Assembly (NCBI GenBank): GCA_049414625.1
Contig: JBMSAU010000110.1
Coordinates: 13,915 to 77,914, forward strand
Source of the DNA: Thermodesulfobacteriaceae bacterium
GTDB lineage: Bacteria; Desulfobacterota; Thermodesulfobacteria; Thermodesulfobacteriales; Thermodesulfobacteriaceae
Direction of reading: 5' to 3'
DNA length: 64,000 bases
The notes below the pieces were generated by a model, which saw nothing but the letters and a program-made list of their open reading frames with translations, did not search any database and was not told the origin of the DNA. This document shows, piece after piece, positions 3,030 through 51,995 of the stretch; within the stretch, counting starts at the first letter, position 1; every line of letters begins with the position of its first letter. The position numbers and the translations under genes are program-made.

Positions 3030-3074
3030 ATAACTAAGTTTAGATATGTTGTATTTTAAAGCTAAAATTTAACC

Positions 3075-4643
3075 ATGATGTTTGTTAGCCTACAGTTCAA
3101 GCTTGAACTGAAAAAAGAAGACAAAGAAAAACTCATAAAGCTAATGCGCAAGCAATCCTCTGCTATTCGTGTAGCATACAATATGCTAAAGGAGTTGGAA
3201 AAAGAAGAAACAAAAAACCCTCACTCTCAGATATACCACAGATTAAGACAGTTATTTCCTGAGTTGCCAACAGGATACATTAATTCAGCCATATACAAAG
3301 CTAAACAGTATACTACTGATAAATCAGTGGTATTTGGAGGTAGAAGACTTTTTGAAAAGCTTTGCAAAAACCACCTTACAGGAAAAGCAAGAGAAAAACT
3401 TAAAAAGCAATGGAGAGAACTAAGACAAGGAACATTGATTGCCATAGGTTCAAAACATAAAACCGTACAGGGTAATCAACTACTCAGGTTTGTGGAACTG
3501 GATGGAAAACTACATCTAAGAATTACCACAGGAAAAAGAGAGTTTATCTACGCAAAAGTGTTAAGAGAACCCAGCAATAGCAAAGATAAGTGGATAACTT
3601 TTATGATTATGCTTTTAGAAAGTTGGCAAACAAAAAACTACTTCGCCTACACAGTAGAACTAAAGCTAAGAGATGGAGAAGTTTATGGAAGCGTATCTTT
3701 TGAGATCCCAACACCTGAAGTGAAATACACCAAAGAAAACGGAGTAATAGCAGTAGACACAAACGCATCACCAATTCACTTAGCCATAGCAGAAGTTTCA
3801 AAGACTGGAGAACTGTTAAGCTATCAAACTATTAGCTTACACTACCTTTTAGGACTTTCCAAAAACACCAAGGATCATCAAGAGTGGATATTAGCCCATC
3901 AGATAGTGGATTTGGCTATTGAGAAAGGCAAAGCTATAGCAGTGGAAAATCTAAAGAAACTCAAAAAGGGAACCCGTGGAGATGGCAAGGCTAAACTGAG
4001 AAGAATACTTCACAGCTGGAACGCCAAAAAGTTTTTACAAAAGCTAAAAAGAGTAGCAAAGCTAAAAGGTGTAGAAGTGATAGAGGTCAACCCTGCCTAT
4101 ACCTCAGTTATCGGTATGCTAAAGTATGCACCGCAATTGAACATAGACAAGGATATTGCAGGTGCTTATGTAATAGGAAGAAGGGCACTGGGATTTAAAG
4201 AAGATACACCCGAGAATTACGAAAGACTACTAAAGGACAAGGCATATCTGGAGTTTGCACTGAAAAGATATGAAGAAAGAGAAAAGGAACTTAGAGAAAT
4301 TATAGAGAAGGAAAGCAACAAATACAAGAGAAATGCACTAAAAAGCGAACTAAAGAATGTAGAGAATGCAAAGAACATTTTAGTTAATCTCATACAAAGC
4401 CTTCAGAGTGAGTCAAGCTCCTGTGAGGGAGCCGATGGAAGGAATCCCGAGCAGGGAGAGACTAAAGAAGTCTCTCAAGTAGCTTGGCAAGTTCTGAAGG
4501 TAGCCTTCCTCTTCCCTATCCTTGGAAAGGTCTTACCAAGAGACCTTTCTTCTCTGAAGCCCATATTGGTGGAAGGGATGTGGGATAGGGTGAGGTATTC
4601 TAAAGGGTTAGCTCCTTTAGAGGCTGGAGGGGCGTCCCGATAA
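3075..4643 (+). CDS. tnpB: TnpB-like (IS200/IS605 OrfB family) RuvC nuclease lacking the zinc-ribbon insert
   Basis: The N-terminus SLQFKLELKKEDKEKLIKLMRKQSSAIRVAYN is TnpB-like. RuvC-I is VIAVDTNASP, RuvC-II is AIAVENLKKL, followed by VNPAYTS. RuvC-III is DKDIAGAYVIGRRAL. No CxxC...CxxC lies between NPAYTS and RuvC-III. G+C is visibly higher than in the flanks. Confidence 0.8.
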   Translation: MMFVSLQFKLELKKEDKEKLIKLMRKQSSAIRVAYNMLKELEKEETKNPHSQIYHRLRQLFPELPTGYINSAIYKAKQYTTDKSVVFGGRRLFEKLCKNHLTGKAREKLKKQWRELRQGTLIAIGSKHKTVQGNQLLRFVELDGKLHLRITTGKREFIYAKVLREPSNSKDKWITFMIMLLESWQTKNYFAYTVELKLRDGEVYGSVSFEIPTPEVKYTKENGVIAVDTNASPIHLAIAEVSKTGELLSYQTISLHYLLGLSKNTKDHQEWILAHQIVDLAIEKGKAIAVENLKKLKKGTRGDGKAKLRRILHSWNAKKFLQKLKRVAKLKGVEVIEVNPAYTSVIGMLKYAPQLNIDKDIAGAYVIGRRALGFKEDTPENYERLLKDKAYLEFALKRYEEREKELREIIEKESNKYKRNALKSELKNVENAKNILVNLIQSLQSESSSCEGADGRNPEQGETKEVSQVAWQVLKVAFLFPILGKVLPRDLSSLKPILVEGMWDRVRYSKGLAPLEAGGASR

Positions 4644-4663
4644 GGGATCTTTAGAACAGCCTC
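4399..4663 (+). ncRNA. candidate omega-RNA-like structured RNA overlapping the tnpB 3' end
   Basis: Perfect local stems: 4417-4421/4428-4432, 4456-4462/4470-4476 (7 bp), 4525-4533/4541-4549 (9 bp) and 4620-4626/4657-4663 (7 bp). Long-range pairs: 4401-4408/4552-4559 and 4514-4521/4583-4590. The in-frame translation here is low-complexity and not protein-like. Confidence 0.45.
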
Positions 4664-4675
4664 AGCATCGTAATC

Positions 4676-5932
4676 ATGTTTAAATTGGGTAACTTTGCTT
4701 TTGTTGGTAAAGATGTATCAGACAGATATAAAGATATTGATTACTTTTTGTATCAACAACATCTTGATGTTCTAGCAACATCAAACTGGGTATTATTCAA
4801 ACCATTTTATCAAAAAGATATTAACACTTCTAGATTGCATAATAAAATCAAAACGCTATTAATAGTTATGTTGCTTGTTAATGATCCCGGCTATACAAAT
4901 TTAGTAAATTGGTTCAAAGGTGTAGACGGATTGCAAGTAGCTGATTCAATTCCACATCTTATATTGCGGCATTTCAAAGTTCTTGAACAATATTTAAGGG
5001 AAGGTGTAAATTTTACAGGTGTAACAAAATTTACAACAAACAGTTTCAGTAAACAATTAGCTAGGGCAAAAAACAGACTAACAAATGTAAGTAACTTAGT
5101 GTACTTAGCTAAAGAACTGGATGTCAGTCTGCAGTACAACAATACACTAGAAAATGATGCAGGTATACAATTATTAAATTTTGGTATAGAGATGGCATCG
5201 GGTATTATTACAAATGTAGCAATATTAGCTGCTATTGGTGAATTGCTTGTAGATACTATTAATCAACTGATACCAAATCAAATATTTACTAGCTTAGATA
5301 GTGGTTTAAACAAAATAACTGACATTATTAGAAATTTAGTGTTAGCTAAACAACCAGCTTATCCTCAAGCATATGAGAGTAGTACATACTTACTATCAGT
5401 TAACATTAATATGAGATTTGTTGCAAACAGTTTCAATGAATTTGTTGAGAATATATTAGTACCTCTTATTGGTTTGTATATGATATCTGCTCCTACTTTA
5501 TGGAGTGATTATTGGTCTAATAATGATGATGCTATATCTCAATTTCTTAAATCTGGAACATTTCTAAGCAGATTATTTACTGCTCCACCTTATATGTTTT
5601 CATGTCTAGTTCCAGGACAAGTTTTTATACCAGTAGCCGCAGTTCAAAACATTAGTTTTACTCCATCTAAAGAGACTTTTATTTCAGGTCATCCAAAGTA
5701 TGTTGATGTAAATATGACTGTCATTGATCTCATACCTGTTTTATTGTTTTCATCAACAACAACAGATGGAACACCATCATTCAATCCTCTAGCAGGAGGC
5801 TTCCAAGCTCCAAGTAACTATAGAAAGCGATTCATAGAGGAGTTAATGAAACTTGAGAATGAATTTGAAGTTAAAGAGGATGCTCAAAAAATTTTAGTGT
5901 TAGGTCATCCTATACTTAAAAATATAAAGTAG
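4676..5932 (+). CDS. tail/baseplate-associated protein, short paralogue of 58854-60902 without the M23 domain
   Basis: Shared blocks with 58854-60902: FGKDV near the N-terminus, LVPGQVFIP versus LVPGKIFIP, SKETF..G.PK, LENEF versus LDNEF, and GHPILK. Confidence 0.65.
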   Translation: MFKLGNFAFVGKDVSDRYKDIDYFLYQQHLDVLATSNWVLFKPFYQKDINTSRLHNKIKTLLIVMLLVNDPGYTNLVNWFKGVDGLQVADSIPHLILRHFKVLEQYLREGVNFTGVTKFTTNSFSKQLARAKNRLTNVSNLVYLAKELDVSLQYNNTLENDAGIQLLNFGIEMASGIITNVAILAAIGELLVDTINQLIPNQIFTSLDSGLNKITDIIRNLVLAKQPAYPQAYESSTYLLSVNINMRFVANSFNEFVENILVPLIGLYMISAPTLWSDYWSNNDDAISQFLKSGTFLSRLFTAPPYMFSCLVPGQVFIPVAAVQNISFTPSKETFISGHPKYVDVNMTVIDLIPVLLFSSTTTDGTPSFNPLAGGFQAPSNYRKRFIEELMKLENEFEVKEDAQKILVLGHPILKNIK

Positions 5933-5954
5933 CAACAATACTAAATTTTTTTGT

Positions 5955-7775
5955 ATGAAGTTTGATAACTGTGCTTCATGTATGTTAAGAGATCGTCCTA
6001 TTGTTATGGAGGATTACATAGATAATGATTCAGATCAAACTATTATGTTAGTTGGTGAAGCACCAGGTTACACAGAAGCAAAAACGGGTAAGCCATTTAC
6101 AGGTAAATCAGGCTCCATAATTCGCAACATTATAAAACAAATCAAAAACTACAATATTGTAATAACAAATAGTGTTTTATGTCATCCAGATAAGAATGAA
6201 ACTCCAAATGATACTGTGCTAACAAAATGTAGACCAAACATCATTAATCAAATACAAAAATATTCACCAGTTAAAATTATTACACTAGGTAATAGAGGCT
6301 TGCAACAAATATGTAAAATTTACCAACTTAAGCATATCAAAGCATCACAAAAAGGATTTATAGACACTGTTTTGGATAGGAATACTAAACAAAAGATAGA
6401 AATTTATGCAACATATCATCCTGCTTACTATTTGAGAAGTAGAGAAGAGGATATCATAAATCATATTTTGGATACATTTAAGCAAGTAACAAATAATCCA
6501 AATCTAGTCTACATAGATACAGCAAGCAAAGTAGAAGCAGCAAAACAATTAGAGTTCTTACAATCAGAATATGATAGTGCTAAGAATTTAGATTTGGATA
6601 TTGATTTAAATGGATATGATATAATATCCTGCTTTGAATATGAAAATTATATGTTGTTATGTTTATACAAACCTGAAGCAGGCAAAAAGATTATCGGATT
6701 ACCAATTCAAACTTTTGTACATAATTTTGAAGCAGACAAAAAATTCAATTTTGCTACATTTGTAACAGGAGATAAAAAAGAACTCAGAATTGTTAGCAGA
6801 AACTACAGTAAAATACTTAGCGACTACATAAAAAATATAAATGGTAAAAGCTCTTCATTTGGAGTTATAGAGGGCAGTTTAGTTCAGAATTTTGCATTAT
6901 TCCTATCAGTATCTAGAAATAGATCGTTTCACAAACCCAGTTATGCATATTTGGATATAGAAGTTTTAAACAATGAAGGAGAATTTCCAGATCCAGTTAT
7001 AGCTGATAGACCCATCATATGTTACAGTTATATGGATAACAATAAGAACAAAATATATAGTTGTTACTTGCAAACAAAACATGTAGATTTACAAACAGTA
7101 AAAAAATATTTACCAGAACAAGTTAGTCAAGAAATTGAATTGATTGCTTTCGAAAATGAAAAGGATTTAGTTGTTCACATAACCAATAAAATAAAAGATG
7201 AGTTTGCTTTGTATGTTGGTTGGAATGTTGGCTTTGACGTATCATACATCATAAACAGATACATAAAGCTAACAAACGATAGTTCCATTATTCCCTGTAA
7301 AGTGAATGATGAAAAGAATGTGGGTACAGATTGTGACTTGGTCTATGGTGCAACAATAGATTTGTTAAAGATGTATCGCAATATAAAACCAGATCTAACA
7401 TCTTACTCTTTGGATAATGTCTCAAAATTAGAATTAAAATCTAGCAAAGTAAAACTAAACAAATCCTTAAAACAAATCTGGGATGAAGACCCAAGCTTAG
7501 TTATTGCATACAACATATATGACACTATTCTGGTTAGCATGATAGATGAAAAATATAAGTTTGTAGATCAATATCACTATTTGAGATCTTTGTATGAATT
7601 ACCTTTTAATGAGAAATTTGTTAACAGTAAAGTTTTAGCTACAACTATTAAGTTGATTGCAGTTGCTCTGAGACATAATCTAATTCCAACTATGTTAGTT
7701 AGCAAAACAATTGATTCGTATACAGGAGCATATGTAAGAGAGTTTATAAAAGGTGTATTTAGAGTAGAATCTTAA
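5955..7775 (+). CDS. family-4 uracil-DNA glycosylase domain fused to the family-B DNA polymerase N-terminal/3'-5' exonuclease domain (polymerase fragment 1)
   Basis: GEAPG...PFTG.SG matches the UDG4 signature. ExoI is YLDIEV, ExoII is GWNVGFDVSYI, ExoIII is AYNIYD. The protein ends at YTGAYVREFIKGVFRVES, just before polymerase motif A. Exact CTAAATT-N7-ATG lies upstream. Confidence 0.85.
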   Translation: MKFDNCASCMLRDRPIVMEDYIDNDSDQTIMLVGEAPGYTEAKTGKPFTGKSGSIIRNIIKQIKNYNIVITNSVLCHPDKNETPNDTVLTKCRPNIINQIQKYSPVKIITLGNRGLQQICKIYQLKHIKASQKGFIDTVLDRNTKQKIEIYATYHPAYYLRSREEDIINHILDTFKQVTNNPNLVYIDTASKVEAAKQLEFLQSEYDSAKNLDLDIDLNGYDIISCFEYENYMLLCLYKPEAGKKIIGLPIQTFVHNFEADKKFNFATFVTGDKKELRIVSRNYSKILSDYIKNINGKSSSFGVIEGSLVQNFALFLSVSRNRSFHKPSYAYLDIEVLNNEGEFPDPVIADRPIICYSYMDNNKNKIYSCYLQTKHVDLQTVKKYLPEQVSQEIELIAFENEKDLVVHITNKIKDEFALYVGWNVGFDVSYIINRYIKLTNDSSIIPCKVNDEKNVGTDCDLVYGATIDLLKMYRNIKPDLTSYSLDNVSKLELKSSKVKLNKSLKQIWDEDPSLVIAYNIYDTILVSMIDEKYKFVDQYHYLRSLYELPFNEKFVNSKVLATTIKLIAVALRHNLIPTMLVSKTIDSYTGAYVREFIKGVFRVES

Positions 7776-8023
7776 TGAGGATTTTTTTGTGTAATAGCAA
7801 CTACACTAAATTTAAAGATATGAGTAGTTTGTCTAGGCCGTATTACATTTTACTAAATAATAGTTCAGATGAAGATAATTTGTCTAGCATTATACAATTT
7901 GTTAGAAAACAACTAGGTCCAAATGCTAACATAAAAGTTATAAGAAAGCCACCACAATATATTGATCCGCTGTTCCGATTGAGATATGAAGGAACTACAA
8001 TAGATATTTATGAAGAAGCTTAA
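7775..8023 (+). CDS. hypothetical protein
   Basis: ORF track entry. The start overlaps the upstream stop as TAATG. Confidence 0.5.
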   Translation: MRIFLCNSNYTKFKDMSSLSRPYYILLNNSSDEDNLSSIIQFVRKQLGPNANIKVIRKPPQYIDPLFRLRYEGTTIDIYEEA

Positions 8024-27737: not shown

Positions 27738-29033
27738 CTATTCATTATTTATACTCCCTTCAACGAATTGCTTTGGAATAGCTATTACAAGTCCTATTGG
27801 TAAATCTCTGAAGTAAGTTATTTTATTTGTTTTTTTGCTTTTGACTCTAATTGTTATATTTGCATCAACGCTATCACCATCAAAGTCTCCTCCCAGTGGT
27901 GCACAAGCTAACGGATGTATTTGTATTGTATCTTGATCTGCTATAACTGGTTTTGCTGCTAGCCAAGATGTCTTATGCAAAGCTGGGTCTCTTTTATAAA
28001 CCACTACAGCATCTGGTAAAACATCTTGCTCTAAAACCTTTCTAAAGAAGTTTATCAATTCTTGTGGAAACAGAGTAGGATAATTGGAAATCTTGTTTAT
28101 AAGCTTAGTTATATCATTAACAGCAGGTTTAATCTCTTGTCTTGCAGTTTTTGTTATCTCTATAAATTCTTGTTTGTGTTTTGTTAGTATGCTATTAATT
28201 ATTTGTGGCTTGTATAGTTGCAACAGAGCTGTAAATGGAATAGCAATTTGGTCTATCTCAAGATTTGGATTAGGACTAATAACAGATCTTGCTGTGTAGT
28301 TAACTGTTTTGCTAGCAAGTTGTTCTCTAATAAAACCTGTTTTTGTTCCAAATTGTTCTGCTAACAAATCTATTAGTTTAACGATCAACCTATACAATTT
28401 TGAGCTATTAGCATTACCAACTTCAAAAGTTTTGTTTTGTTCTATTATTTTTGAGTAAACATCTGTTAACGGATGTATTGATATTTTGTTGTCTATCTTT
28501 GAGTAATCTCTCCAACCAGGAGGAAGCACAATTATTTTGTTTGTTATCAAATTCTCAACTTTATTGTTTGATAATTTGATTATCTCATTTATTAACTGAC
28601 CGGATACACTATTCTGTTGAGCAATATACTCAATCAATTTAATCAGTTTGTTTTTCTCAAAGAAGTCTGCGAAGCCTTGCATCAAGATTTTATGATTTGT
28701 GTAGCTAATCTCTTTCTCATCTTCCAAAACTAAATTCCCTTCTTCATCAATTGCTAAAATCCTATCTGGTCTGTTTCTGAATGCTCTGATTGTGGGTAAA
28801 TTATCCAGAATCATCAACACAGGAAACTTAGGGATATATACATTCAACGGTATATATCCCATTTGCTCAAACCATTTTGAACTTTTTCTCTCACCAAATA
28901 GATATTGTGAGTACAATCCATTTATTTGGCTCAGTAACTTTTGTTCATTTAAGTTTGCAGGTAATGGTTCCATAATAGCTGGAGCATTATGCTCCTTAAT
29001 AAATTGTTCCACATTTAGTAGTTCAAAAATCAT
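27738..29033 (-). CDS. multisubunit RNA polymerase beta-prime, N-terminal fragment ending just after the catalytic loop
   Basis: TVNYTARSVISPNPNL..IAIP aligns with VDYSGRSVI..P.L..CGLP. KRDPALHKTSWLAAKPV aligns with NRAPTLHRLGIQAFEPV. IHPLACAPLGGDFDGDS aligns with LHPLVC..YNADFDGDQ. Confidence 0.85.
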   Translation of the reverse strand: MIFELLNVEQFIKEHNAPAIMEPLPANLNEQKLLSQINGLYSQYLFGERKSSKWFEQMGYIPLNVYIPKFPVLMILDNLPTIRAFRNRPDRILAIDEEGNLVLEDEKEISYTNHKILMQGFADFFEKNKLIKLIEYIAQQNSVSGQLINEIIKLSNNKVENLITNKIIVLPPGWRDYSKIDNKISIHPLTDVYSKIIEQNKTFEVGNANSSKLYRLIVKLIDLLAEQFGTKTGFIREQLASKTVNYTARSVISPNPNLEIDQIAIPFTALLQLYKPQIINSILTKHKQEFIEITKTARQEIKPAVNDITKLINKISNYPTLFPQELINFFRKVLEQDVLPDAVVVYKRDPALHKTSWLAAKPVIADQDTIQIHPLACAPLGGDFDGDSVDANITIRVKSKKTNKITYFRDLPIGLVIAIPKQFVEGSINNE

Positions 29034-29066: not shown

Positions 29067-30623
29067 CTAAAGCATATCTTTGATTGATTTTACGAATTTA
29101 TTCACATATTCTTGTTCCAAGCCAACTACATAATTTTGAACAAAGTTTATTGCTTCATCGCTATCCTCAACAACAATCACAGACGCATTTTTTGCTTTAT
29201 TAACAACAAGCATAACAATATCCAAAGGTAAATGTTGTCTCAATTTGTCTGATAACTCATTTAAAAACTTTAGTGAATATTTTCCTTTTAGTGATAGACC
29301 TCTGCTTCCATGACTGAACACAGGACCAACTATTAGATTGTATAGCAACATACCAAAGATATGCGGTGCAATTGACTTTAATATTTTTTCAGCTTCACTT
29401 CTGTTTTTAGCCGCTTTCAATATGGATATTAAATCATTGCTAGTTAATGTTGTAGTTTTCCAAGCAACCATACCTGATATATCTCGTAATGTTGTAAGAT
29501 CAAGATTTGCATTATAATCTTTCAATATACTTATTAACTCCATTTTTATGATATGTTCCAACATAGTTAACTTAACCTCTCCTCTACATATACGTTTAAA
29601 CAGATTTATCAAATACTCATTCAAAAAGTCTGGATTTTGTCTATTCAAAAAGCCTGCTAGCTTATACTCATCAGTCTGAGAGTTATATAGGAAATATCTC
29701 TTCTTAACTCCTGTTCCAAATGCAGAGTCTCCAACAAATTCCAATTTAACTTTTGGATAATGTGCTAGTACTTTTTGTTTGTATGTGTTTGTAGCAAATC
29801 TATGAGCATAAGTGTAAACCAAGGGTAAAATACTATTATTCAAAACATCTTCATGCAAAATATCATATTTATCGTAAACAAAGAAGCTATCTGTATCGTT
29901 ATACATTATGAATTGAGTATTTGCATCAAACTTTTTACGAGCGCTAATAAAATCATTTATATTAACAGACAAATCATTAATATTTTTTGTTTGTATATAA
30001 CGATTAATCAAAGCTGATGTTGTTAGAGATATATATTGTCCTGTTATTGTTATGGCTTCAGCAATGTATATATTGTAGAATGGAAATGAATCTGTTCCGA
30101 AGACACCGTACATGCTATTCATGGCAAGTTTGGTTGCATTCTGTATGAGATCTGCAACTTGATCGCCTTGCTTTGCCTTTGCCTTATATATATCTCTCAT
30201 TTTAATCCATTCAACTAAAGTCTTTTCTAGTAAGATAGATAACTGATTACCATTTGTTAGTAATCCATTAGGAGTAACAATTATGTTTTTGTTTTGTATT
30301 AAGTCCAGTAAATCTTGTCCATTCATTTCATGATTGGTAAATCGTTTTGTTGTTATAAACCATTTGTATTTGACAATTTCATCATACAATCCAAACCAAA
30401 ACAATGTTCCAAATATCCTACCTGCAAACCTACCTTTTGCAAAATTATTCCAATAGGATAAATCAGCTTCATTATTTGTTTCAATACATAACAATTCTTG
30501 CAAGTATTTCTCTTCGTTTTTTATGTTTGATCCTGATACAAATCCATGAACATCTAGAATATTGTTTGCTACCATGAGATTTGGATATAGTGAATTTACG
30601 TCAAAAACTTTTATTGTTGGCAT
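29067..30623 (-). CDS. family-B DNA polymerase, polymerase (palm/fingers/thumb) domain (polymerase fragment 2)
   Basis: Motif A is VFDVNSLYPN, motif B is KLAMNSMYGVFG, motif C is YNDTDSFF. The ATG at 30621-30623 (MPTIKVFDV) has its own exact CTAAATT-N7-ATG; the track extends to 30656. Confidence 0.9.
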   Translation of the reverse strand: MPTIKVFDVNSLYPNLMVANNILDVHGFVSGSNIKNEEKYLQELLCIETNNEADLSYWNNFAKGRFAGRIFGTLFWFGLYDEIVKYKWFITTKRFTNHEMNGQDLLDLIQNKNIIVTPNGLLTNGNQLSILLEKTLVEWIKMRDIYKAKAKQGDQVADLIQNATKLAMNSMYGVFGTDSFPFYNIYIAEAITITGQYISLTTSALINRYIQTKNINDLSVNINDFISARKKFDANTQFIMYNDTDSFFVYDKYDILHEDVLNNSILPLVYTYAHRFATNTYKQKVLAHYPKVKLEFVGDSAFGTGVKKRYFLYNSQTDEYKLAGFLNRQNPDFLNEYLINLFKRICRGEVKLTMLEHIIKMELISILKDYNANLDLTTLRDISGMVAWKTTTLTSNDLISILKAAKNRSEAEKILKSIAPHIFGMLLYNLIVGPVFSHGSRGLSLKGKYSLKFLNELSDKLRQHLPLDIVMLVVNKAKNASVIVVEDSDEAINFVQNYVVGLEQEYVNKFVKSIKDML

Positions 30624-30675
30624 AAATGAAAATTTAGATTGGATGCAAAAAAACAAGCCGCCTAAATTTTTTTGT

Positions 30676-31674
30676 ATGCTAGACGTTAGGAATATCTTTA
30701 ACTACTATGTATATAAGCCTATTTATTACAAACGAAATCACATATTAATACGGTGTCCTTTCTGTGGAGACAGTGTTAAAAATGTTATGCATGCTCATTT
30801 GTATATTGAACCAGATTTGATGGTATTTTGGTGTGCAAGATGTTATGAAGGTGGTTCGCTAGCCTATCTGCTAACCAAAATCAGAGACAGATTTTCAATT
30901 GATGTAAATCCGATAATAAACCAATTACGTAATGTTATAGTTAGTAATACTAGCTTACAAAAATCAAAACAAATAAACTTAGATATAACTTACATTGAGA
31001 TGCAAAAACTAAAACAAAAATTAAGTCAAGAATCTATTGCTAGGTATAGAAATGAGCTAGAGTATTACTTCATCAAAAAGCAAATCAATATCAGTGAACA
31101 TGTATTACATCAATTACCGATTGCTATGTATGATGTAGTGTACGATTATTTGCTACCACATAAAGATAGATTGGATAATTCACTAGTCGTATTTACAATC
31201 GGTAGTAGAGTAATTTACAGATATGATTATTTGAGTTTGTTACATAACTTCAAAACAGAAAGAAGGTTTATGAATCTCTATCTAGCAATAGGTAAAAGCT
31301 ATCAAGCTCTACAATATAGTTTGTTTACATTGCTACCATACAACTTTGATAGAAAGTTTTATCAATCATACAATCTAAGCAGAAAAAATTTACTACTTGT
31401 TTCTGAAGGATTAACTGATATGATATTGTATGCAGAACATTTACTAACAAGTGTAGATACACCAATAACTTGCTTAGTGTTAAATGGTAAATGGTATGAA
31501 ATTATAAAAGACTTTGAACCTTTGTTTGACAATATTACAGTAATTGTTGATAATGATGCTGCAACTAAAGCATACATAGCTGGTCTCAAGATAAACAGTA
31601 AACTAAGTTTTGTTATACCAGTTACAGGTAATGATCTTAGAGAGAGTAAAAAATATCTTGAAGTAGAAATTTAA
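30676..31674 (+). CDS. DnaG-like primase (zinc ribbon plus TOPRIM)
   Basis: CPFCGDS...CARCYEGG forms the zinc ribbon. LLVSEGLTDMI and VIVDNDAAT are TOPRIM E..D and DxD elements. The ATG at 30676 is chosen by the exact CTAAATT-N7-ATG (the track starts at 30562). Confidence 0.7.
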   Translation: MLDVRNIFNYYVYKPIYYKRNHILIRCPFCGDSVKNVMHAHLYIEPDLMVFWCARCYEGGSLAYLLTKIRDRFSIDVNPIINQLRNVIVSNTSLQKSKQINLDITYIEMQKLKQKLSQESIARYRNELEYYFIKKQINISEHVLHQLPIAMYDVVYDYLLPHKDRLDNSLVVFTIGSRVIYRYDYLSLLHNFKTERRFMNLYLAIGKSYQALQYSLFTLLPYNFDRKFYQSYNLSRKNLLLVSEGLTDMILYAEHLLTSVDTPITCLVLNGKWYEIIKDFEPLFDNITVIVDNDAATKAYIAGLKINSKLSFVIPVTGNDLRESKKYLEVEI

Positions 31675-32594: not shown

Positions 32595-34187
32595 ATGAGT
32601 AATTTGACATATAAACCGACACAGTTATTAACTGCTACTATGTTATGCGTTCCATTTCTAAGATTTAACGATCCAAATAGATTGCAGATGGCTTCCAACC
32701 ATCTAAGACAATCTCTACCTTTGGTTAATGCTGAAATTCCGAGGATAAGAACTGGATTTGAGAATGTAATTGTTAAGAAAGCAGAAAGCTTTTACATTGA
32801 GACAAATACTTTTGAGAAAATTGATGAATTTATAGTTAAAACAGATGAAGGTTTGAAGTTTAATGCTATGTTTTTAAAATATGATGAGAAATTAAAAGTT
32901 GCATACAATCCTTATCATATATGTTTTGTCAGAGATATTGTTAGCGGTGGTTGGTGTCCTGAGCTCAAACTAGGAGTAAATGCTTTAGTTGGTTATATGT
33001 CTTACTATGGTTTCAACTATCAAGATGCCGTAGTAATATCTGAATCTTTTGCTAAAAGACTAAAACATATCGAGAGAAAAGTATTTATTATTAGATTGCC
33101 TGCAAATAGTCAATTAAAACATATCAGTAGTAATGACAATACTATTAGTTTGATACCAATACCAGGTAAAACATACAATACACTAATATCCTATGAGTAT
33201 ATTGAAGCAGGTGTATTACAACGAAAACAAATTAATGTTGACAATTTGCTTGTAGTTGATGTAAGAGTTAAAGCTCTACCAAATTACAGATTACCTGCAT
33301 CAGTAGCAGAATTCATCAAGAAAGCAAAGAAACCATTCAAACTAGCAAAATTAGAAACAGAACCTACACAAAAATATCCTATTGTTATACAAATAATTGG
33401 TTATGTTACCAGAGAAGCAACAATAGGAGATAAACTAACAAATAGACATGGAAACAAAGGAGTCATTGGCTTGATTGTTCCTGATGAAGAAATGCCCAAA
33501 ACAAAAGACGGAAAGATATTAGATATATTGTTCTCTCCTCTTTCTGTTCCATCCAGAATGAACCTAGGCCAATTAATGGAAAATTTGCTTGCAAAAATTG
33601 TCGTTAAGGTTGAACAACAGGTATTAGATTTGCTTAATAGGAATATGAGGGATAAAGCTCAAAAAATGTTGCTAGACTTTTTAAAGAGAGTTGAAAAACG
33701 AAGTTCATTTCATCATTTAATTGACAATGTTTTAACTAAAAGATGGGATTTATTGGAGTATAACCTAACAAAATATGGATTGAGCATCATACAACCACCT
33801 TTTAGTGAATTGAATGCAGAAGAGATAAAACAATTAGCCAAAGACTATAATGTCAAGGAAATAGATTATGTTAGAGTAGACAATTATGATGTTAGCATCA
33901 ATGTGGGTTATCAAACTATATTAAAACTAGAACATTTAGCATCAAGCAAAGTAACAGGAGCAGGCATAACAAACAATGAATACACTAATCCACAAAGAAT
34001 CGGAGAAATGGAAACTTGGAATATCATTGCTCACGATTATGATGAAATTAAGAGATTATTCCGCAGAAGTTATGAATTTGAAAAACTATCCTACTATAGC
34101 GATAAGTTTGGCTTTGATAGTTATATATTCAAACCTGATGTAAATAATGTATATCAAGTTTACAAGAAAGTTTTATTCAATGAGTAA
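32595..34187 (+). CDS. multisubunit RNA polymerase beta, C-terminal fragment
   Basis: [24 protein letters not shown] aligns with [39 protein letters not shown] aligns with [28 protein letters not shown] aligns with PLGVPSRMNIGQ. Exact CTAAATT-N7-ATG lies upstream. Confidence 0.9.
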   Translation: [530 protein letters not shown]

Positions 34188-45217: not shown

Positions 45218-45254
45218 AATTTAGATTAGTTGTTTCTAGCATCCACTCTAAATT
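45218..45254. promoter_or_regulatory. divergent pair of CTAAATT elements, each exactly 7 nt from its ATG (45210 minus strand, 45262 plus strand)
   Basis: AATTTAG at 45218-45224 and CTAAATT at 45248-45254. This is a representative of the window-wide cassette. Confidence 0.6.
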
Positions 45255-45261
45255 TATAATC

Positions 45262-46941
45262 ATGCTTGGTTTGCTAGAGTTATTGAAACCATCAACATAT
45301 GTGATTGAAGTATCATTCTTCTGTGCATTACAAAATAAAAAGATGCTAGATTTAATCAAAAACATTCTACCCTATTGGAGTATGCTTGCAACTGAGGAGC
45401 AAAAACCTTTATTATCAATGTTAAATACATTTGTGAATAAGGGTATACCAGAACATGATTTCAAACTATCACAGCCATTGGAGTTTTATTACAAACTATT
45501 TGATGTAGCAAATCTCGATGAATTGCAATCAACAATATTGGATAGGTTATATAAAATACAATTTATTGCTAAGGTATATGAGAAGATTCAACTACTCCAG
45601 CATCCAATACATGACTATAATAAAGTTGAAATGCTTGTTAGTGAATTGTTATCTGATCTTAATGAAGTTAGAGATAAAGAGCTAACAGAGAAAATCTTCA
45701 ATGCAAAAGATTTATTAAATGTAACAGAAATATCTGATTTGAAATTGGTTAGTTTGATACCAGAGCTAGATTTAGTATTAGGAGGATTTTATGTTAATAA
45801 TCTTTATCTGTTTGCCGCAGGATTGGGACAGGGTAAATCATTTACATTACTTAACATGGCAGTAGGATTTTCAGTTTTCCTAAAAGCATTTGAAAACTAC
45901 TATAAAGATTGGTATGGTAAAAAACCAGTTGTTTTATACATATCACTGGAAAATACTAGCGTTCAGATCAGGAACAGATTATACACATTACTAAATGATT
46001 GCACATTAACAATACCAAAAGAAAAAAATACTCCTTTGAAACAATTATTCCAAGCTGTGGATAACTTCTATATTATATCTTTATCAGATGAGATAGTGGA
46101 TTATGTTTACATAGAGAATATTGTGTTGTCGATGCAATCAAAAAATATGCATCCAGTTGTCATTGTGTTAGATTATATGGATGAGTTATATGCTCCTGCT
46201 AACATAAGTGAACATAGACATAAGTTAGGTTATAATGCTAGAATGTTAAGAAAGATAGCTATGAATCACAATCTACTAGTTGTATCAGCTACACAGATAA
46301 ACAGAAAAGGCATTGAAGAAGGTAATATATCCATTACACATTTATCAGAATCGATAGAGCATGGTAAAGTAACAGATGCATTGATTGGTTTGGTTCCGGT
46401 AACAATAAACAAAGGTTATGTTATTACAAATCAACCTTTAACCAGAGATATTATTAAAAGCAGTCTAGACAACAAAGCAGATGCAATTGGAATGATAAAT
46501 AGCATGTATCTCAAAGTATTAAAAAATAGACCAAATCTATTAACAGGATTTGGGTATGCAATTAGTAATCAAAGTTTAACAGGATTTAGATCTCTCATAT
46601 ATGGATTGAATTATGAAATCTCAATCTATCTTGTTCCAAGTTTACATTCATATTTAGGAGATGATTATATAACTACAAACTATGATATATTGCATAGCAG
46701 TGTTACAAATAGAATAGCACCATTCGTAAAAAATCTTGATGTTAAGGATTACAGTAAATATCAATACGGATTAGAGTTAATATCAAATCTACTTGGTATT
46801 GATATAAAACAAATAAATGTAAATAATGAAAACATAGAAAATGACTTTGTAGTAAGTAATATCAATCAAAACATAGATGCACTTGATATCATAGATGATT
46901 TTGAAGCATTCGAACAAAAAAGTTTAGATTTAGATATATAG
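45262..46941 (+). CDS. DnaB/RecA-fold replicative helicase
   Basis: Walker A is AAGLGQGKSF. Walker B-like is VIVLDYMDE. SATQINRKG is also present. Exact CTAAATT-N7-ATG lies upstream. Confidence 0.7.
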   Translation: MLGLLELLKPSTYVIEVSFFCALQNKKMLDLIKNILPYWSMLATEEQKPLLSMLNTFVNKGIPEHDFKLSQPLEFYYKLFDVANLDELQSTILDRLYKIQFIAKVYEKIQLLQHPIHDYNKVEMLVSELLSDLNEVRDKELTEKIFNAKDLLNVTEISDLKLVSLIPELDLVLGGFYVNNLYLFAAGLGQGKSFTLLNMAVGFSVFLKAFENYYKDWYGKKPVVLYISLENTSVQIRNRLYTLLNDCTLTIPKEKNTPLKQLFQAVDNFYIISLSDEIVDYVYIENIVLSMQSKNMHPVVIVLDYMDELYAPANISEHRHKLGYNARMLRKIAMNHNLLVVSATQINRKGIEEGNISITHLSESIEHGKVTDALIGLVPVTINKGYVITNQPLTRDIIKSSLDNKADAIGMINSMYLKVLKNRPNLLTGFGYAISNQSLTGFRSLIYGLNYEISIYLVPSLHSYLGDDYITTNYDILHSSVTNRIAPFVKNLDVKDYSKYQYGLELISNLLGIDIKQINVNNENIENDFVVSNINQNIDALDIIDDFEAFEQKSLDLDI

Positions 46942-47008
46942 TTTTTTTGCTATGGAATTATAAAATGTCATAGGAAAAAAGAAAGTTCAAGCAAAGATTT
47001 CACATAGC

Positions 47009-47036
47009 TTGAAAAGGCTTAAGTTAAGCTTAAATT
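47009..47036 (+). promoter_or_regulatory. candidate sigma70-type promoter (TTGAAA, 16-nt spacer, TAAATT) with an embedded palindrome GCTTAAGTTAAGC
   Basis: -35 at 47009-47014 and -10 at 47031-47036. The palindrome lies at 47017-47029. The ATG at 47044 is only 7 nt after the -10. Confidence 0.35.
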
Positions 47037-47043
47037 CATAGAC

Positions 47044-47790
47044 ATGGATACTCTGGAAATTATAGGACAAAGGCTAAAACAAGCACGAGAAACTGTAGGC
47101 TACACGCCAGAAGAGGTCTCACAAAAGCTTGGAATTAGCACGGATGAAATTTTGCTTTTTGAAAGCGGAAGGAAAAGCCCGCCACTTAGCCTTTTGAGAA
47201 AACTTGCCAAACTCTATGGAGTCTTTGATAGCTACTTCTATGGGATAGATAAACCCGAAGGAACCGCCTTTACCCTACTTCTTGATAAAGCCAAAAAACT
47301 CTCTTTTCCTCCTGAAACCATAAGCCAGCTTCACCGCTTTGTTTTTCTGTGTAGGGAGATAGTAAAGCTTAGGCAAAAGCTTGGCATTCCAAAGCCTGAA
47401 ATTCCTCGCCATATAGATAACCAAGAGAACTTGGGAGAACTCTTGGAGAATATGGGTATCCCAGTAATCAGGATGTCCTTAGGCAAAGAACTTTCTTCCG
47501 CCATGGTTTGTGATAAAAGGTTTGGTGCGTTTATCCTCGTGAATTCCGATTGTCCTGACCAAAACCAGCTTATTGCCCATGAGTATGCCCGCATCCTTCA
47601 GGGAGAAAAAATTCATCTAAATGCTAAAGATTGCCCAAAAGCCATGCCACTACAAAGCAGAACTTCACGACCTGTGTCCAAGGTTCTTTGGGAACTTGTT
47701 TTGACTGCGGTAAAACACGGACTGATAAGCACCAGTTATGCATCCGATTTGCTTGAAATAAGTCCTATGGAAATTGAAGAGTTTTCATAA
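47044..47790 (+). CDS. XRE-family HTH regulator fused to an ImmA/IrrE (DUF955)-like domain with a degenerate metal site
   Basis: IGQRLKQARETVGYTPEEVSQKLGISTDEILLFESGRKSP is a Cro/C1 HTH. The C-terminal GAFILVNSD...LIAHEYARIL aligns with ...HELGH..., but the second His is replaced by Arg. Confidence 0.8.
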   Translation: MDTLEIIGQRLKQARETVGYTPEEVSQKLGISTDEILLFESGRKSPPLSLLRKLAKLYGVFDSYFYGIDKPEGTAFTLLLDKAKKLSFPPETISQLHRFVFLCREIVKLRQKLGIPKPEIPRHIDNQENLGELLENMGIPVIRMSLGKELSSAMVCDKRFGAFILVNSDCPDQNQLIAHEYARILQGEKIHLNAKDCPKAMPLQSRTSRPVSKVLWELVLTAVKHGLISTSYASDLLEISPMEIEEFS

Positions 47791-47791
47791 A

Positions 47792-47828
47792 GCCCGCACG
47801 GGCTTCTTATTGGTGCGGGCAATTTTTC
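47792..47828 (+). terminator. rho-independent terminator
   Basis: GCCCGCAC (47792-47799) pairs with GTGCGGGC (47813-47820), followed by AATTTTT. Confidence 0.6.
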
Positions 47829-47980
47829 CTGATGAATTTTGATAAGACTGTAAGCTGATGGTAAGCTGTTAGTTCTATAGCATCGCCCTCCAGATCTATC
47901 ACCCTAACTGGTCCCGTCCCCTCCCTCTCAATGAAAAAAAAGGGAGGGCGGAGAGGGTTTGTTCTATGTTTCTGGTCTCA

Positions 47981-48427
47981 TCAGTCTTCATAGTAGACTC
48001 TGTAGTTATCATCCTCCTGATAACTCCTTAGCAGGCTTTCTGCTTCGTCCTTTGTCAACAGTTCTGCATATTCTCCCTCTTTCAAGGTTGACAGTTTTCC
48101 GATAGGTTTGCCCTTGTCAAAGATTACCACGTATCTCAACTCACTCGCGCTAAAAGCATCACGGGTATTCTCATGGGTCGCCAAGTAGATGTGTGGAGTA
48201 ATCTGATACAACCGAATGATGTCGTGATACCATCCGCCATCATTATGGCGTACATTACCAAATCTCCTCCAGCAATCACACCTCTCGTAGATCGTAACGA
48301 TAGGCGTTAGACTGTTCAAAGATTCCATCCACTGCTCTTCCGTATGATACACGTATAAGCTAATGTCTCCAAGGCGGGAACTCCACCAGAGTTCCCTATC
48401 GTCTGGGTAGTATGCGGTTTGTTGCAT
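47981..48427 (-). CDS. hypothetical acidic protein (island gene)
   Basis: ORF track entry. AGGAGG lies 9 nt upstream of the ATG. CCTAAATT lies 35 nt upstream of the ATG. Confidence 0.65.
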   Translation of the reverse strand: MQQTAYYPDDRELWWSSRLGDISLYVYHTEEQWMESLNSLTPIVTIYERCDCWRRFGNVRHNDGGWYHDIIRLYQITPHIYLATHENTRDAFSASELRYVVIFDKGKPIGKLSTLKEGEYAELLTKDEAESLLRSYQEDDNYRVYYED

Positions 48428-48590
48428 GTTTATTACCTCCTGTGGGTTTTATTTGTTTATTAAATTTAGGTAGATTTTTATTCTGATCTTAAAGTGATTT
48501 TTTTGTTATTGTTTTTTACTAAATAGATAACATGCTAGTTGAGAGTCTCTTATAGCTTCTCTTCATTCCTTTATCTCCTTATTTATAAAT

Positions 48591-48610
48591 GGAGCCGTAG
48601 GAGAGGCTCC
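48591..48610 (-). terminator. hairpin GGAGCC-N8-GGCTCC followed by an A/U-rich tail on the minus strand
   Basis: It lies directly downstream of the stop of 48625-49086. Confidence 0.4.
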
Positions 48611-48624
48611 TGAGGAAGTAAAAG

Positions 48625-49086
48625 TCAATAGACTTTTATCTTTACTGGATTTAAAGCTGTCATTAATCTTGGAAGTAGTTCCTCTAAGTCTTCTTGACTG
48701 CCTACGAAGATATAACCTCCATCAAGCTCTAATTTTGCAATCGTCTCAAGTTCTTGCTTATCCCAAACATACACTGCAAAGTATTCCTCTTCAAATCCAA
48801 CAAAAGCATGGACTATATACAAATCACACATCACAACCCGATAAACATCTATATGGTAGAGAATGTCCGACCCTTCTACTCTAAAAAGTATCTCAAGAAC
48901 CAATGCTGCTCCTTCATTTGCGAAATGATTTTCTTTTGGGTTTTCTTCCACTTCCACCTCATAATCATTAATAGAGTGCACAATCTCAAAATGCTTTCCA
49001 TACGGTGGAACAAACGGAACAAGCACTTCCTTCGTTCTTGCAAAACCTAAGTCTCTTAGTATTTTGTCAAGTTTTTCTTTCGTCAT
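48625..49086 (-). CDS. hypothetical acidic protein (island gene)
   Basis: The ATG at 49084-49086 is preceded by AAGAAGGAGGTGAAGCT. The track extends upstream to 49152. Confidence 0.6.
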   Translation of the reverse strand: MTKEKLDKILRDLGFARTKEVLVPFVPPYGKHFEIVHSINDYEVEVEENPKENHFANEGAALVLEILFRVEGSDILYHIDVYRVVMCDLYIVHAFVGFEEEYFAVYVWDKQELETIAKLELDGGYIFVGSQEDLEELLPRLMTALNPVKIKVY

Positions 49087-49160
49087 AGCTTCACCTCCTT
49101 CTTTAGTGTTTTCGGTTATGTTCTTAAGTTCTTCCATCTTCATGGCAAACACCTCCTTTG

Positions 49161-49619
49161 TTATATTCTCACAACGGGTAGGTTATTCAGTTCTTCCTCA
49201 GCTCTTTCTCTTGCTTCTTCCCACAAAGCGTCCTCTTCATCTTCTCCGTAATAATCACTTAACCTCTCTGCCCATTCTTCTGTAAGCCTCTCATACGCAT
49301 ATTCGTAGGTCTCATACACATTGTTATACCAAAACAGATTCTTCCTACCATACTCGTCGAAATACGGCGGAAACTCAATCTCACGACCTCCAAAATCGTC
49401 AGGAATGAAAACCTTTTTCCCTTCCAATTTCTCAGACAAGAAAACACTCTTTCCTACTCCAGGTGGGATACTCCAAAACTCTTCGTAATCCTCCTCATCT
49501 GTAAATTCTACAATGAGAAAGGTATGAATACGATTAGCCGCATCAATTGTACTCCAGATCACTCTTAGATCCCTCATAGCTTCTCCTCCTTCTTGGGTTA
49601 GCTGTTGCTTCTTCCTCAT
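49161..49619 (-). CDS. hypothetical acidic, aromatic-rich protein (island gene)
   Basis: Two Shine-Dalgarno-preceded ATGs are possible: 49617-49619 (TAGGAGGTGAAGAC) and 49575-49577 (AAGAAGGAGGAGAAGCT). The track extends to 49679. Confidence 0.6.
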   Translation of the reverse strand: MRKKQQLTQEGGEAMRDLRVIWSTIDAANRIHTFLIVEFTDEEDYEEFWSIPPGVGKSVFLSEKLEGKKVFIPDDFGGREIEFPPYFDEYGRKNLFWYNNVYETYEYAYERLTEEWAERLSDYYGEDEEDALWEEARERAEEELNNLPVVRI

Positions 49620-49800
49620 GTCTTCACCTCCTAAAGTTTTATTTATATATTTAATTTTATACAACTTTATAAAAATCAAGAGGGCATATTATGATTTGCG
49701 TCATGTCCTCATTCCCTTTGAATATGCGTGTAGAACAGAGAACTCAGTGTTAGGTCTTTGTATCTTTTCCAGATAAGCTTTAGAAAGTCCCTTATTTGAC

Positions 49801-49860
49801 GGGACACCCTTCACAGTATTGAAAATCAACCTGTTCAGAAGGGTAGGGTGTCCCATTTTT
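49801..49860 (+). terminator. long hairpin GGGACACCCTTC...GAAGGGTAGGGTGTCCC followed by T7 (plus-strand orientation)
   Basis: Stems 49801-49812 and 49838-49854; T-run at 49856-49862. Confidence 0.45.
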
Positions 49861-49937
49861 TTGTCAAATTATAGGAATACAATAAGTTCAATAACAAAAA
49901 AAGAGGGAGGAAGAGGGCAATTATGAAGAGCTTCTAA

Positions 49938-51674: not shown

Positions 51675-51816
51675 AACGTTCTTCTGCTAAAAAGTTGTGA
51701 GTAAACAACTTTAAATATTAATGCAAAAAATTTTTTACAAGTATGCTAAAGATAATACTGTAAGAAAACAAACATTTTATTATTGGATGCTATCATTTAA
51801 CACACCTCCGCAAGAA

Positions 51817-51885
51817 GTCTCCATCTTCCGTAAGGTGGAGATTAATTGCGAAAGACTTGACAAGGTTCTTATTTTGGACTATATT
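51817..51885 (+). promoter_or_regulatory. hairpin plus sigma70-type promoter: -35 TTGACA, 17-nt spacer, -10 TATATT
   Basis: Hairpin CTCCATCTT-CCGT-AAGGTGGAG at 51819-51840. -35 at 51857-51862 and -10 at 51880-51885. It is homologous to the queE promoter module at 720-800 on the minus strand. Confidence 0.55.
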
Positions 51886-51889
51886 AATA

Positions 51890-51995
51890 AATGTCCCGAT
51901 AATCAAGGGACCTAGGGCTGGAGCGGCCCGAAGTTAAGCCTGTGGAGAGGCGAAAGCCTCTATGAAGCAGGAAGCTCCACCTATTGGAGCGGCTC
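51890..51995 (+). ncRNA. candidate small structured RNA transcribed from the 51857-51885 promoter
   Basis: A 5' hairpin GTCCC-N9-GGGAC is followed by a G+C-rich element of about 85 nt. Within it, GGGCTGGAGC pairs with GCTCCACCT, CCTG pairs with CAGG, and AGAGGC-GAAA-GCCTCT forms a GNRA-capped stem. No credible ORF is present. Confidence 0.35.

Follow-up and report, generated by a model that had tools for sequence, protein, structure and literature searches.

DNA polymerases of family B (PolB) that are encoded by more than one gene come in several forms. In phage RM378 the polymerase is reported to be split where the N-terminal domain meets the palm (PMC3061061, citing Petrov et al. 2010), the gp43A and gp43B proteins of phage 25 co-purify and are active (PMC2988022), and the active Methanothermobacter enzyme consists of two subunits that are not spliced together (PMC4104785; PMC3061061). 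Split inteins are found in the PolBs of Nanoarchaeum (PMC4104785) and phage MIJ3 (PMC6892783), and an engineered split Pfu polymerase was fully active and gained a new substrate tolerance (PMC3061061). Phages of the phiKZ group possess a divergent PolB without a fused exonuclease and encode a stand-alone 3'-5' exonuclease elsewhere in the genome (Iyer et al., PMC7824862). Here we describe a split PolB from a 64,000-nt stretch of contig JBMSAU010000110.1 (the window, i.e. the whole stretch that was analysed), which belongs to an uncultivated phage, probably of hot-spring origin. Our analysis indicates that a T4/RB69-type PolB fused to a uracil-DNA glycosylase (UDG) domain has undergone natural fission into two separate subunits, which probably form a non-covalent holoenzyme.

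The two genes and the position of the break

According to the original prediction, PolB is encoded in the window by two independent genes on opposite strands, about 21 kb apart, the first with motifs ExoI, ExoII and ExoIII and the second with motifs A, B and C, and each is preceded by an exact CTAAATT-N7-ATG cassette. All these elements were located (Table 1). Instead of the single polypeptide of the T4/RB69 gp43 type we find two open reading frames (ORFs) on opposite strands, 21.3 kb apart, each with its own start and stop codons, which between them account for an entire PolB without gaps or duplicated parts. The product of the first gene (subunit 1, the exonuclease half) matches the Pfam family DNA_pol_B_exo1 (E 3.6e-12), its residues 329–600 align to residues 109–402 of RB69 gp43, and it ends in ...YTGAYVREFIKGVFRVES. 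It carries the family-B exonuclease motifs DxE, NxxxFD and YxxxD, and the corresponding columns (D144/E146, F237/D238 and D333) are invariant in an alignment of 49 PolBs. The product of the second gene (subunit 2, the polymerase half) carries the family-B polymerase motifs A (DxxSLYPS), B (KxxxNSxYG) and C (DTDS) as well as KKRY, and its residues D8, N10, S11, L12, Y13 and P14 are invariant in six stand-alone polymerase halves. The open frame of subunit 2 extends 33 nt upstream of the ATG, to a TTG at 30656; we took the ATG at 30623 as the start because both the homologues and the upstream cassette support it.

Table 1. Features of the split polymerase and its surroundings, in window positions
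Feature	Position	Strand	Details
Subunit 1 gene	5955-7775	+	606-aa ORF; UDG, PolB N-terminal domain, 3'-5' exonuclease, first palm strand
Cassette CTAAATT-N7-ATG, exonuclease-half gene	5941-5957	+	exact pattern; AGCAAC element upstream at about 5931-5936
Family-4 UDG domain, aa 27-166	6033-6452	+	Pfam UDG E 9e-24; NCBIfam type-4 UDG E 3.9e-28
UDG motif GEAPG	6054-6068	+	
UDG motif FTGKSG	6096-6113	+	
UDG motif YHPAYY	6414-6431	+	
ExoI LDIEV	6951-6965	+	
ExoII WNVGFD	7221-7238	+	
ExoIII YNIYD	7509-7523	+	
First palm beta-strand, C-terminus of subunit 1, GAYVREFIKGVFRVES	7725-7772	+	break immediately after; colinear alignment, AlphaFold2 (AF2) strand 410-413
RNA polymerase beta' N-terminal piece gene	27738-29033	-	Pfam RNA_pol_Rpb1_2 E 1.4e-25; phrog_2987, phrog_2986
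Subunit 2 gene	29067-30623	-	518-aa ORF from ATG; palm, fingers, thumb; Pfam DNA_pol_B E 6e-16
KKRY	29691-29705	-	
Motif C YNDTDS	29886-29903	-	
Motif B KLAMNSMYG	30105-30131	-	
N-terminus of subunit 2, MPTIKVFDVNSLYPN	30579-30623	-	motif A strand (FDVNSLYPN), catalytic Asp = residue 8
Cassette CTAAATT-N7-ATG, polymerase-half gene	30621-30637	-	exact pattern
DnaG-type primase gene	30676-31674	+	phrog_19847 E 1.1e-11; divergent from polymerase half; cassette 30662-30678
gp23-like capsid gene	49938-51674		

The position of the break was determined by concatenating aa 191–606 of subunit 1 with subunit 2 and aligning the product to one-piece PolBs; this was preferred to aligning the two halves individually with full-length PolBs in MAFFT, which mis-anchored the fragments. 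The concatenated halves are colinear with one-piece polymerases of the T4/RB69 type. In the profile phrog_262 (856 positions) subunit 1 covers positions 61–397 and subunit 2 resumes at 401 and extends to 585. The joint reads ...GAYVREFIKGVFR(VES/MP)TIKVFDVNSLYPN, i.e. GVFR(VES/MP)TIKVFD, as compared to ...GAYVxEPxxGxxx-xVxSFDxxSLYPS in contiguous homologues, so that the surplus at the joint amounts to five residues, VES after the N-terminal part (three) and MP before the C-terminal part (two). The break lies 5–6 residues before the catalytic Asp of motif A (which we take to be D411 in RB69 numbering), in the turn between two palm strands, and hence inside the palm rather than at a domain border. 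The earlier placement of the break exactly at motif A therefore needs a small correction: it lies upstream of the Asp, not inside the motif itself.

An AF2 model of the concatenation, calculated with an alignment of 55 rows, reached a predicted local distance difference test score (pLDDT) of 84.9 and a predicted template modelling score (pTM) of 0.80, as against a pLDDT of 31.7 without the alignment. In the model the joint (416/417) is a turn between strands 410–413 and 419–426, and the predicted fold comprises the N-terminal domain, exonuclease, palm, fingers and thumb of the T4/RB69 gp43 type; the best Foldseek matches in the PDB are to full-length RB69 gp43 (E ~1e-29, TM 0.62). As the rows of the alignment are one-piece PolBs, this agreement serves as a consistency check only.

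The cassette ahead of each half is part of a signal that is strongly enriched in the window. CTAAATT-N7-ATG occurs 25 times against 0.74 expected (34-fold), a count reached in none of 100 shuffles, and the ATG follows exactly 7 nt past CTAAATT in 23 of 44 copies, many of which have a (T)AGCAAC-like element ahead of them. The extended form, (T)AGCAAC-N4-5-CTAAATTT-N6-ATG without a Shine-Dalgarno sequence, is seen throughout the window (e.g. at 5941, 7806, 12182, 15253, 19717, 22633, 24899, 30637, 30662, 32581 and 45224/45248), and divergent gene pairs have two copies about 24 bp apart (30631–30668; 45218–45254). The halves of distant relatives (contigs L005, L008 and L015; see below) likewise have a TAAATT-N7/8-ATG element ahead of them. 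In phages that encode multisubunit RNA polymerases of their own, early promoters typically contain a conserved AT-rich stretch of some 10 nt centred near position -10 (PMC7598289), and CTAAATTT located 6–7 nt ahead of the ATG fits such promoters and points to an almost leaderless transcript. Judged from these patterns, the cassette most likely serves as a compact promoter that is recognised by the multisubunit RNA polymerase of the phage itself and gives a nearly leaderless mRNA.

In principle, a split intein, trans-splicing introns or programmed inversion of the DNA might restore a single chain from the two halves. The split-intein PolBs of Nanoarchaeum (PMC4104785) and phage MIJ3 (PMC6892783) set a precedent, and exact inversion of the segment 7776–30623 would indeed place the halves head to tail, but we regard rejoining as highly improbable. 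With only 3 + 2 surplus residues there is no room for split-intein blocks, and neither the N-intein block nor the C-intein block (ending in HN followed by Cys, Ser or Thr) is present at the joint. No Rfam family, including group I and group II introns, was found in the window, which speaks against an intron at the break. The prediction made earlier, that the break contains neither an intein nor an intron, is thus supported. The segment 7776–30623 was also considered as an invertible element and rejected, as the only inverted repeats at or near its borders are copies of the promoter motif; a single orientation is seen in all assemblies. Moreover, the stop codon of the first fragment and the start codon of the second would keep the frames apart even after inversion.

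The N-terminal part of subunit 1, which the original prediction left without mention, has the features of a family-4 UDG: motif A (GE(A/G)PG), motif B (HP(S/A)) and four cysteines that could hold a 4Fe-4S cluster (C6, C9, C76 and C92), all invariant in the alignment with relatives. It matches the NCBIfam model UDG_fam4 (E 8e-27), with scores under the NCBIfam equivalog cut-offs, and the family-4 UDG structures 4zbx, 1l9g and 1ui0 in the PDB. The best matches of the domain are type-4 UDGs of archaea and thermophiles.

Relatives of the two halves, selection and origin of the split

The same layout, with the halves on opposite strands and about 21.3–21.6 kb apart, is common to three assemblies: besides the window, two IMG/VR contigs of different sample origin contain both halves, at 97–100% amino-acid identity to the window. 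In the contig of 53.9 kb the halves are about 21.6 kb apart, and the contig of 129 kb fits the same map once its ends are joined. The polymerase half alone is present in at least 11 metagenome contigs at 97–100% identity, and no assembly contains a contiguous polB. An assembly or chimera artefact might be suspected given the metagenomic source and the differences between strains, which include a 1.6-kb TnpB insertion and a 40-kb block (see below), but this explanation has a practically negligible probability, considering that the arrangement recurs in three assemblies and that the stop and start codons are found at the equivalent position in distant relatives, which come from unrelated samples.

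A search of a large protein database identified five such relatives of the polymerase half (P0002–P0006; 494–528 aa, 34–37% identity), all of which start at the motif A strand, for example with MIYIVDINSLYPH and MSKENTYVVVIDINSLYPN. On their contigs (L005–L011 and L048–L052) no exonuclease half was found within 4–10 kb on either side. When 1.8 billion representative proteins were searched exhaustively with HMMER, two further stand-alone exonuclease halves came to light, both with an N-terminal UDG-like domain: P0016 (578 aa, ending in GAYVQQPVPVLITSNK; contig L015, 10001–11737) and P0051 (567 aa, ending in GGFVQDPITSVIYC; contig L016, 532–2235). A third relative, 53% identical, is encoded on a low-coverage contig (L013) with a frameshift, and its shifted frame continues to ...YTGAYVRQFINGVFRC-stop. 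All three end 10–12 residues past GAYV/GGFV, and the position of the break is kept within about 2 residues across lineages at 27–55% identity. Searching with the alignment of exonuclease halves as a profile yielded no further sequences, and no intermediate relatives of the split clade were found in IMG/VR.

The UDG-like domains of P0016 and P0051 lack the catalytic GEAPG and keep all four putative Fe-S cysteines; P0016 has also lost 12 residues around the F-G--G motif. The loss of GEAPG from a domain in which the four cysteines are nonetheless invariant suggests a structural or DNA-binding role that has outlived the glycosylase activity. Downstream of P0016, on the same strand, lies a gene of 195 aa with no Pfam match on record. 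In the window the exonuclease half is followed by a small gene (7820–8023, +; 67 aa), whose start is most likely the ATG at 7820, which has its own cassette (7806–7822), and not the ATG at 7775 that overlaps the stop codon of the exonuclease half; no family was found for it.

The ratio of nonsynonymous to synonymous substitution rates (dN/dS) is 0.14–0.15 for the first fragment, 0.38 for the second and 0.09 for P0005 compared with P0006, which indicates that both halves are under purifying selection. These values, together with intact motifs and a break conserved in relatives at 27–55% identity, agree with the earlier proposal that the two are expressed genes rather than a pseudogene pair. Could the halves nevertheless be decaying remnants of a disrupted polB in a genome that is replicated by another polymerase? 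Some room for this is left by about 25 kb of the strain-specific block and several ORFs without a family, which are uncharacterised. It is however very improbable, as both the exonuclease and the polymerase motifs are intact, dN/dS stays at 0.09–0.38, the two-piece form is retained in lineages that are only 27–37% identical, and both genes have the gene-start cassette. In addition, tblastn over the reconstructed genome (the window, 28 kb beyond it and parts of the strain-specific block) detected no PolA or PolB homologue other than the two halves, and no further DNA polymerase was found among the large ORFs screened with Pfam. Within this scope, both objections that the original prediction raised against itself, a contiguous polB and a second polymerase gene, fail.

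The nearest unsplit relatives include one-piece UDG-PolB fusions from metagenomes, P0017 (1235 aa), P0018 (814 aa, truncated by the contig end) and P0023 (1215 aa), with the order UDG, N-terminal domain, exonuclease, polymerase and 29–33% identity over the exonuclease region. They run uninterrupted through the position of the break (GAYV..G....V..D..SLYPS). The existence of such contiguous proteins leads us to interpret the window genes as the result of fission of a UDG-PolB fusion gene, and a one-piece fusion of the type of P0017, P0018 and P0023 is the likely ancestral form. Some fusions of this kind (up to 1235 aa) are extended further at the N-terminus. The INPHARED collection contained no phage genome with matches to the UDG and PolB parts together. 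A separate case is P0011 (contig L012, 7764–9368), encoded on a T4-like contig with genes 46/47, 44 and regA upstream: its polB leaves the homology inside motif A (SFDLTSL/NLDMG...) and reaches a stop 110 nt before the contig end, which could reflect either a sequencing error or a further interruption at this hot spot.

We propose the following mechanism as the most probable one. The two genes would be transcribed and translated separately, each from its own CTAAATT-N7-ATG signal. Uracil recognition or excision and proofreading would fall to subunit 1, which also provides the N-terminal domain and the first palm strand. Subunit 2, with the fingers (motif B), the thumb and what remains of the palm (motifs A and C), would be responsible for catalysis and for the binding of DNA and dNTPs. 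The two proteins would then assemble non-covalently into one holoenzyme, in which the C-terminal strand of subunit 1 (GAYV..GVFR) could pair with the N-terminal motif A strand of subunit 2, while the N-terminal domain would pack on the palm and fingers as in one-piece enzymes. Active split PolBs such as gp43A/gp43B of phage 25 (PMC2988022), the Methanothermobacter enzyme and the engineered split Pfu polymerase (PMC3061061) set a precedent for such an assembly. Since the opposite-strand layout is exactly what one inversion of 7776–30623 would produce, we propose that one inversion took place long ago, with one of its ends in the polymerase genes or between them; it may have been the fission event itself or a later rearrangement.

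The two proteins could also be independent enzymes that form no stable complex, i.e. an exonuclease-free polymerase and a UDG-exonuclease that acts in trans as a nuclease for repair or proofreading, in analogy to the phiKZ group, where PolBs without a fused exonuclease coexist with a stand-alone one encoded elsewhere (PMC7824862). The window phage resembles that group in having a multisubunit RNA polymerase, an SNF2 helicase and a DnaB-like helicase. We nevertheless consider such independence unlikely: subunit 1 retains the PolB N-terminal domain and the first palm strand, which are integral to the polymerase core in one-piece enzymes, the break is fixed within 2 residues over 27–55% identity, which suggests a constrained interface, and the polymerase is of the T4 type (phrog_262) and not of the divergent phiKZ type.

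Several points weigh against the interpretation of the two genes as subunits of one holoenzyme. That exonuclease and polymerase halves belong together in the distant lineages is concluded from separate contigs, and the dN/dS of the second fragment among close strains is derived from about 29 substitutions. The AF2 model is an artificial single chain guided by one-piece PolBs, and as such no independent proof. The promoter role of CTAAATT is deduced from sequence patterns. About 25 kb of the 40-kb strain-specific block (contig positions 87.7–112.4 kb) lies outside the polymerase search, and several large ORFs without a recognisable family might, strictly speaking, encode a very divergent extra polymerase. 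On balance, the gene fission is real and conserved, and it is most likely functional.

A more speculative extension, which we regard as doubtful, is a modular polymerase whose catalytic subunit works with or without a detachable subunit for uracil sensing and proofreading (Fe-S UDG plus exonuclease). In such a system template uracil would be excised ahead of the fork in physical coupling to the replicase, in an environment where heat speeds cytosine deamination, and it would form a bacterial-virus counterpart of the uracil read-ahead pocket of archaeal PolBs and of D4, the UDG subunit of the poxvirus polymerase. With separate promoters the ratio of subunits, and hence fidelity, could be tuned, and in the relatives that lack GEAPG and keep the four cysteines the domain would be a purely structural or DNA-binding Fe-S module.

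The phage and its genome

The window represents an undescribed clade of probably thermophilic phages. One of the samples in question (IMG 3300005856, W. P. Inskeep) presumably has a Yellowstone geothermal source. It is listed under W. P. Inskeep among the datasets of a study on Hydrothermarchaeota in hydrothermal sediment (PMC9599585). A tblastn comparison with about 50,700 deposited phage genomes revealed no close relative, the best matches being T4-like gp43 proteins at 25–28% identity. The moraphage lineage (PMC12619734) was considered as the identity of the phage and ruled out, as moraphages use sigma factors.

The 53.9-kb IMG/VR contig joins the right flank of the window back to window position 1, so that the window-type genome would close as a circle of about 92 kb, a closure reached by combining strains. 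The block of 40.35 kb mentioned above is present in one strain only (IMGVR_UViG_3300005856_000023, the 129-kb contig, 78,509–118,861), which brings the genome size to about 127 kb from about 92 kb without it; it is absent from the window, where the corresponding site is at about 667–787, and from the 53.9-kb contig. The approximately 15 kb of the block that were read (L060, 1–9161; L002, 1–6441) contain mostly small ORFs of 110–260 aa, besides an ORF of 434 aa and one of 307 aa with a LigD 3'-phosphoesterase domain. The strains differ also in the TnpB insertion of 1.6 kb (window 3055–4663; ORF 3075–4643, +), 1.3 kb upstream of the exonuclease-half gene. Since it is found in the window and in neither IMG/VR contig, we take it for a polymorphic element of the IS200/IS605 type. 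Its ORF matches NCBIfam TIGR01766 at 60.7 bits (cut-off 32 bits) and the guided_TnpB family (E 6e-14), and resembles the "transposase" Rm378p058 of RM378.

Besides the gp23-like capsid protein, near whose gene (46000–52000) the G+C content rises to 0.36–0.39 from about 0.29–0.31 elsewhere, the window encodes an SNF2 helicase, a DnaB-like helicase and the DnaG-type primase. Genes of a split multisubunit RNA polymerase are located at 27738–29033 (-), directly downstream of the polymerase-half gene, at 32595–34187 (+) and, outside the window, at L058 11367–12752 (-); the pieces in the window match PHROGs of the phiKZ/AR9 type. There are two different genes for beta' N-terminal pieces, one in the window and one in the rest of the genome, and one gene for a beta C-terminal piece, which suggests virion and non-virion RNA polymerase sets, as in phiKZ-like jumbo phages. 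The 28 kb beyond the window contain the second beta' N-terminal piece together with GTP cyclohydrolase I, an AAA ATPase, both subunits of ribonucleotide reductase, ThyX and a RecA-like protein. The GTP cyclohydrolase I gene (L053, 12470–13102, +; Pfam E 2e-30), just past the right end of the window, has the AAA ATPase, the small subunit of ribonucleotide reductase and the RecA-like gene as neighbours; its product could feed a 7-deazaguanine DNA modification pathway, for the other genes of which no search was made.

Comparison with described split polymerases

RM378, the closest case described so far, shares several features with the window phage: it is a thermophilic myovirus with a gp23-like capsid, two genes far apart encode its PolB, no intein is involved, the split falls close to where the N-terminal domain borders on the palm, and the polymerase part has 522 aa as compared to 518 aa here. 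Its polymerase half is reportedly active alone, which would suit the reading of the two proteins as independent enzymes. However, the exonuclease (Rm378p024, 313 aa) and polymerase (Rm378p092) genes are 57 kb apart on the same strand, the exonuclease half has no UDG domain, and the polymerase half starts with MNINKYRYRGAYIE..., about 20 residues earlier, so that the GAY strand stays on the polymerase half. Identity to the window halves is 26–28% in partial stretches only, and RM378 uses a sigma factor. At the genome level a close relationship was ruled out, with only 4 weak matches. The earlier split, the lack of UDG and the nearly unshared genomes favour independent fission, and the splits of RM378 and the window are most likely independent events.

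In Aeromonas phages 25 and 44RR and Acinetobacter phages 133 and Ac42 a T4-type PolB is made from two cistrons (gp43A and gp43B), as here, and the PHROG families of these pieces (phrog_2062 and phrog_1918) also match the window halves. There, however, the split is in the fingertip, after about residue 500, while the window break is some 100 residues earlier, in the palm, and the cistrons lie on one strand, 2 bp to 3 kb apart (PMC3061061; 2.5 kb in Ac42), compared with 21 kb and opposite strands in the window. PolB1 and PolB2 of Methanothermobacter (Methanobacteriales) are likewise encoded by non-adjacent genes, but this system is archaeal and its palm is split far downstream, about 83 residues past the Pfu fingers split (PMC3061061). 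The PolB of Nanoarchaeum equitans, also archaeal and with non-adjacent genes, uses a split intein, which is absent here.

Like the window phage, the phiKZ group has split multisubunit RNA polymerases, SNF2 and DnaB-like helicases, and exonuclease and polymerase functions on separate, distant genes. The polymerase of the window is of the T4/RB69 type (phrog_262; RB69 as the top fold in the PDB) and does not belong to the divergent phiKZ clade; the replication module of that group, with a divergent PolB that contains a long helical insert and without a DnaG or AEP primase, is not the one found here, as a DnaG-type primase is encoded, and the genome has about 92–127 kb and not over 200 kb. A T4-type replisome, a gp23-like capsid and two phiKZ-like split RNA polymerase sets come together in this clade in about 92–127 kb, along with a very compact gene-start signal, CTAAATTT-N6-ATG. 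The clade bears on the origin of split multi-subunit information-processing enzymes in viruses.

The original prediction regarded the arrangement as unusual for a phage. Its rarity was overstated, given the phage precedents of RM378, the T4-like gp43A/gp43B pairs and the separate exonuclease of the phiKZ group. Natural split replicases reveal where a polymerase tolerates cuts, which is useful for enzyme engineering, and the present case, from a probably thermophilic source and with a UDG domain on the proofreading subunit, adds a new, evolutionarily stable cut point in the first palm hairpin, 5–6 residues before the motif A Asp. Split PolBs are already known in phages and archaea; the position of the split in the window differs from every described case that was compared (RM378, T4-like phages including Ac42, and Methanothermobacter), and what is new here is the cut point, the fused family-4 UDG and the location of the two genes on opposite strands.

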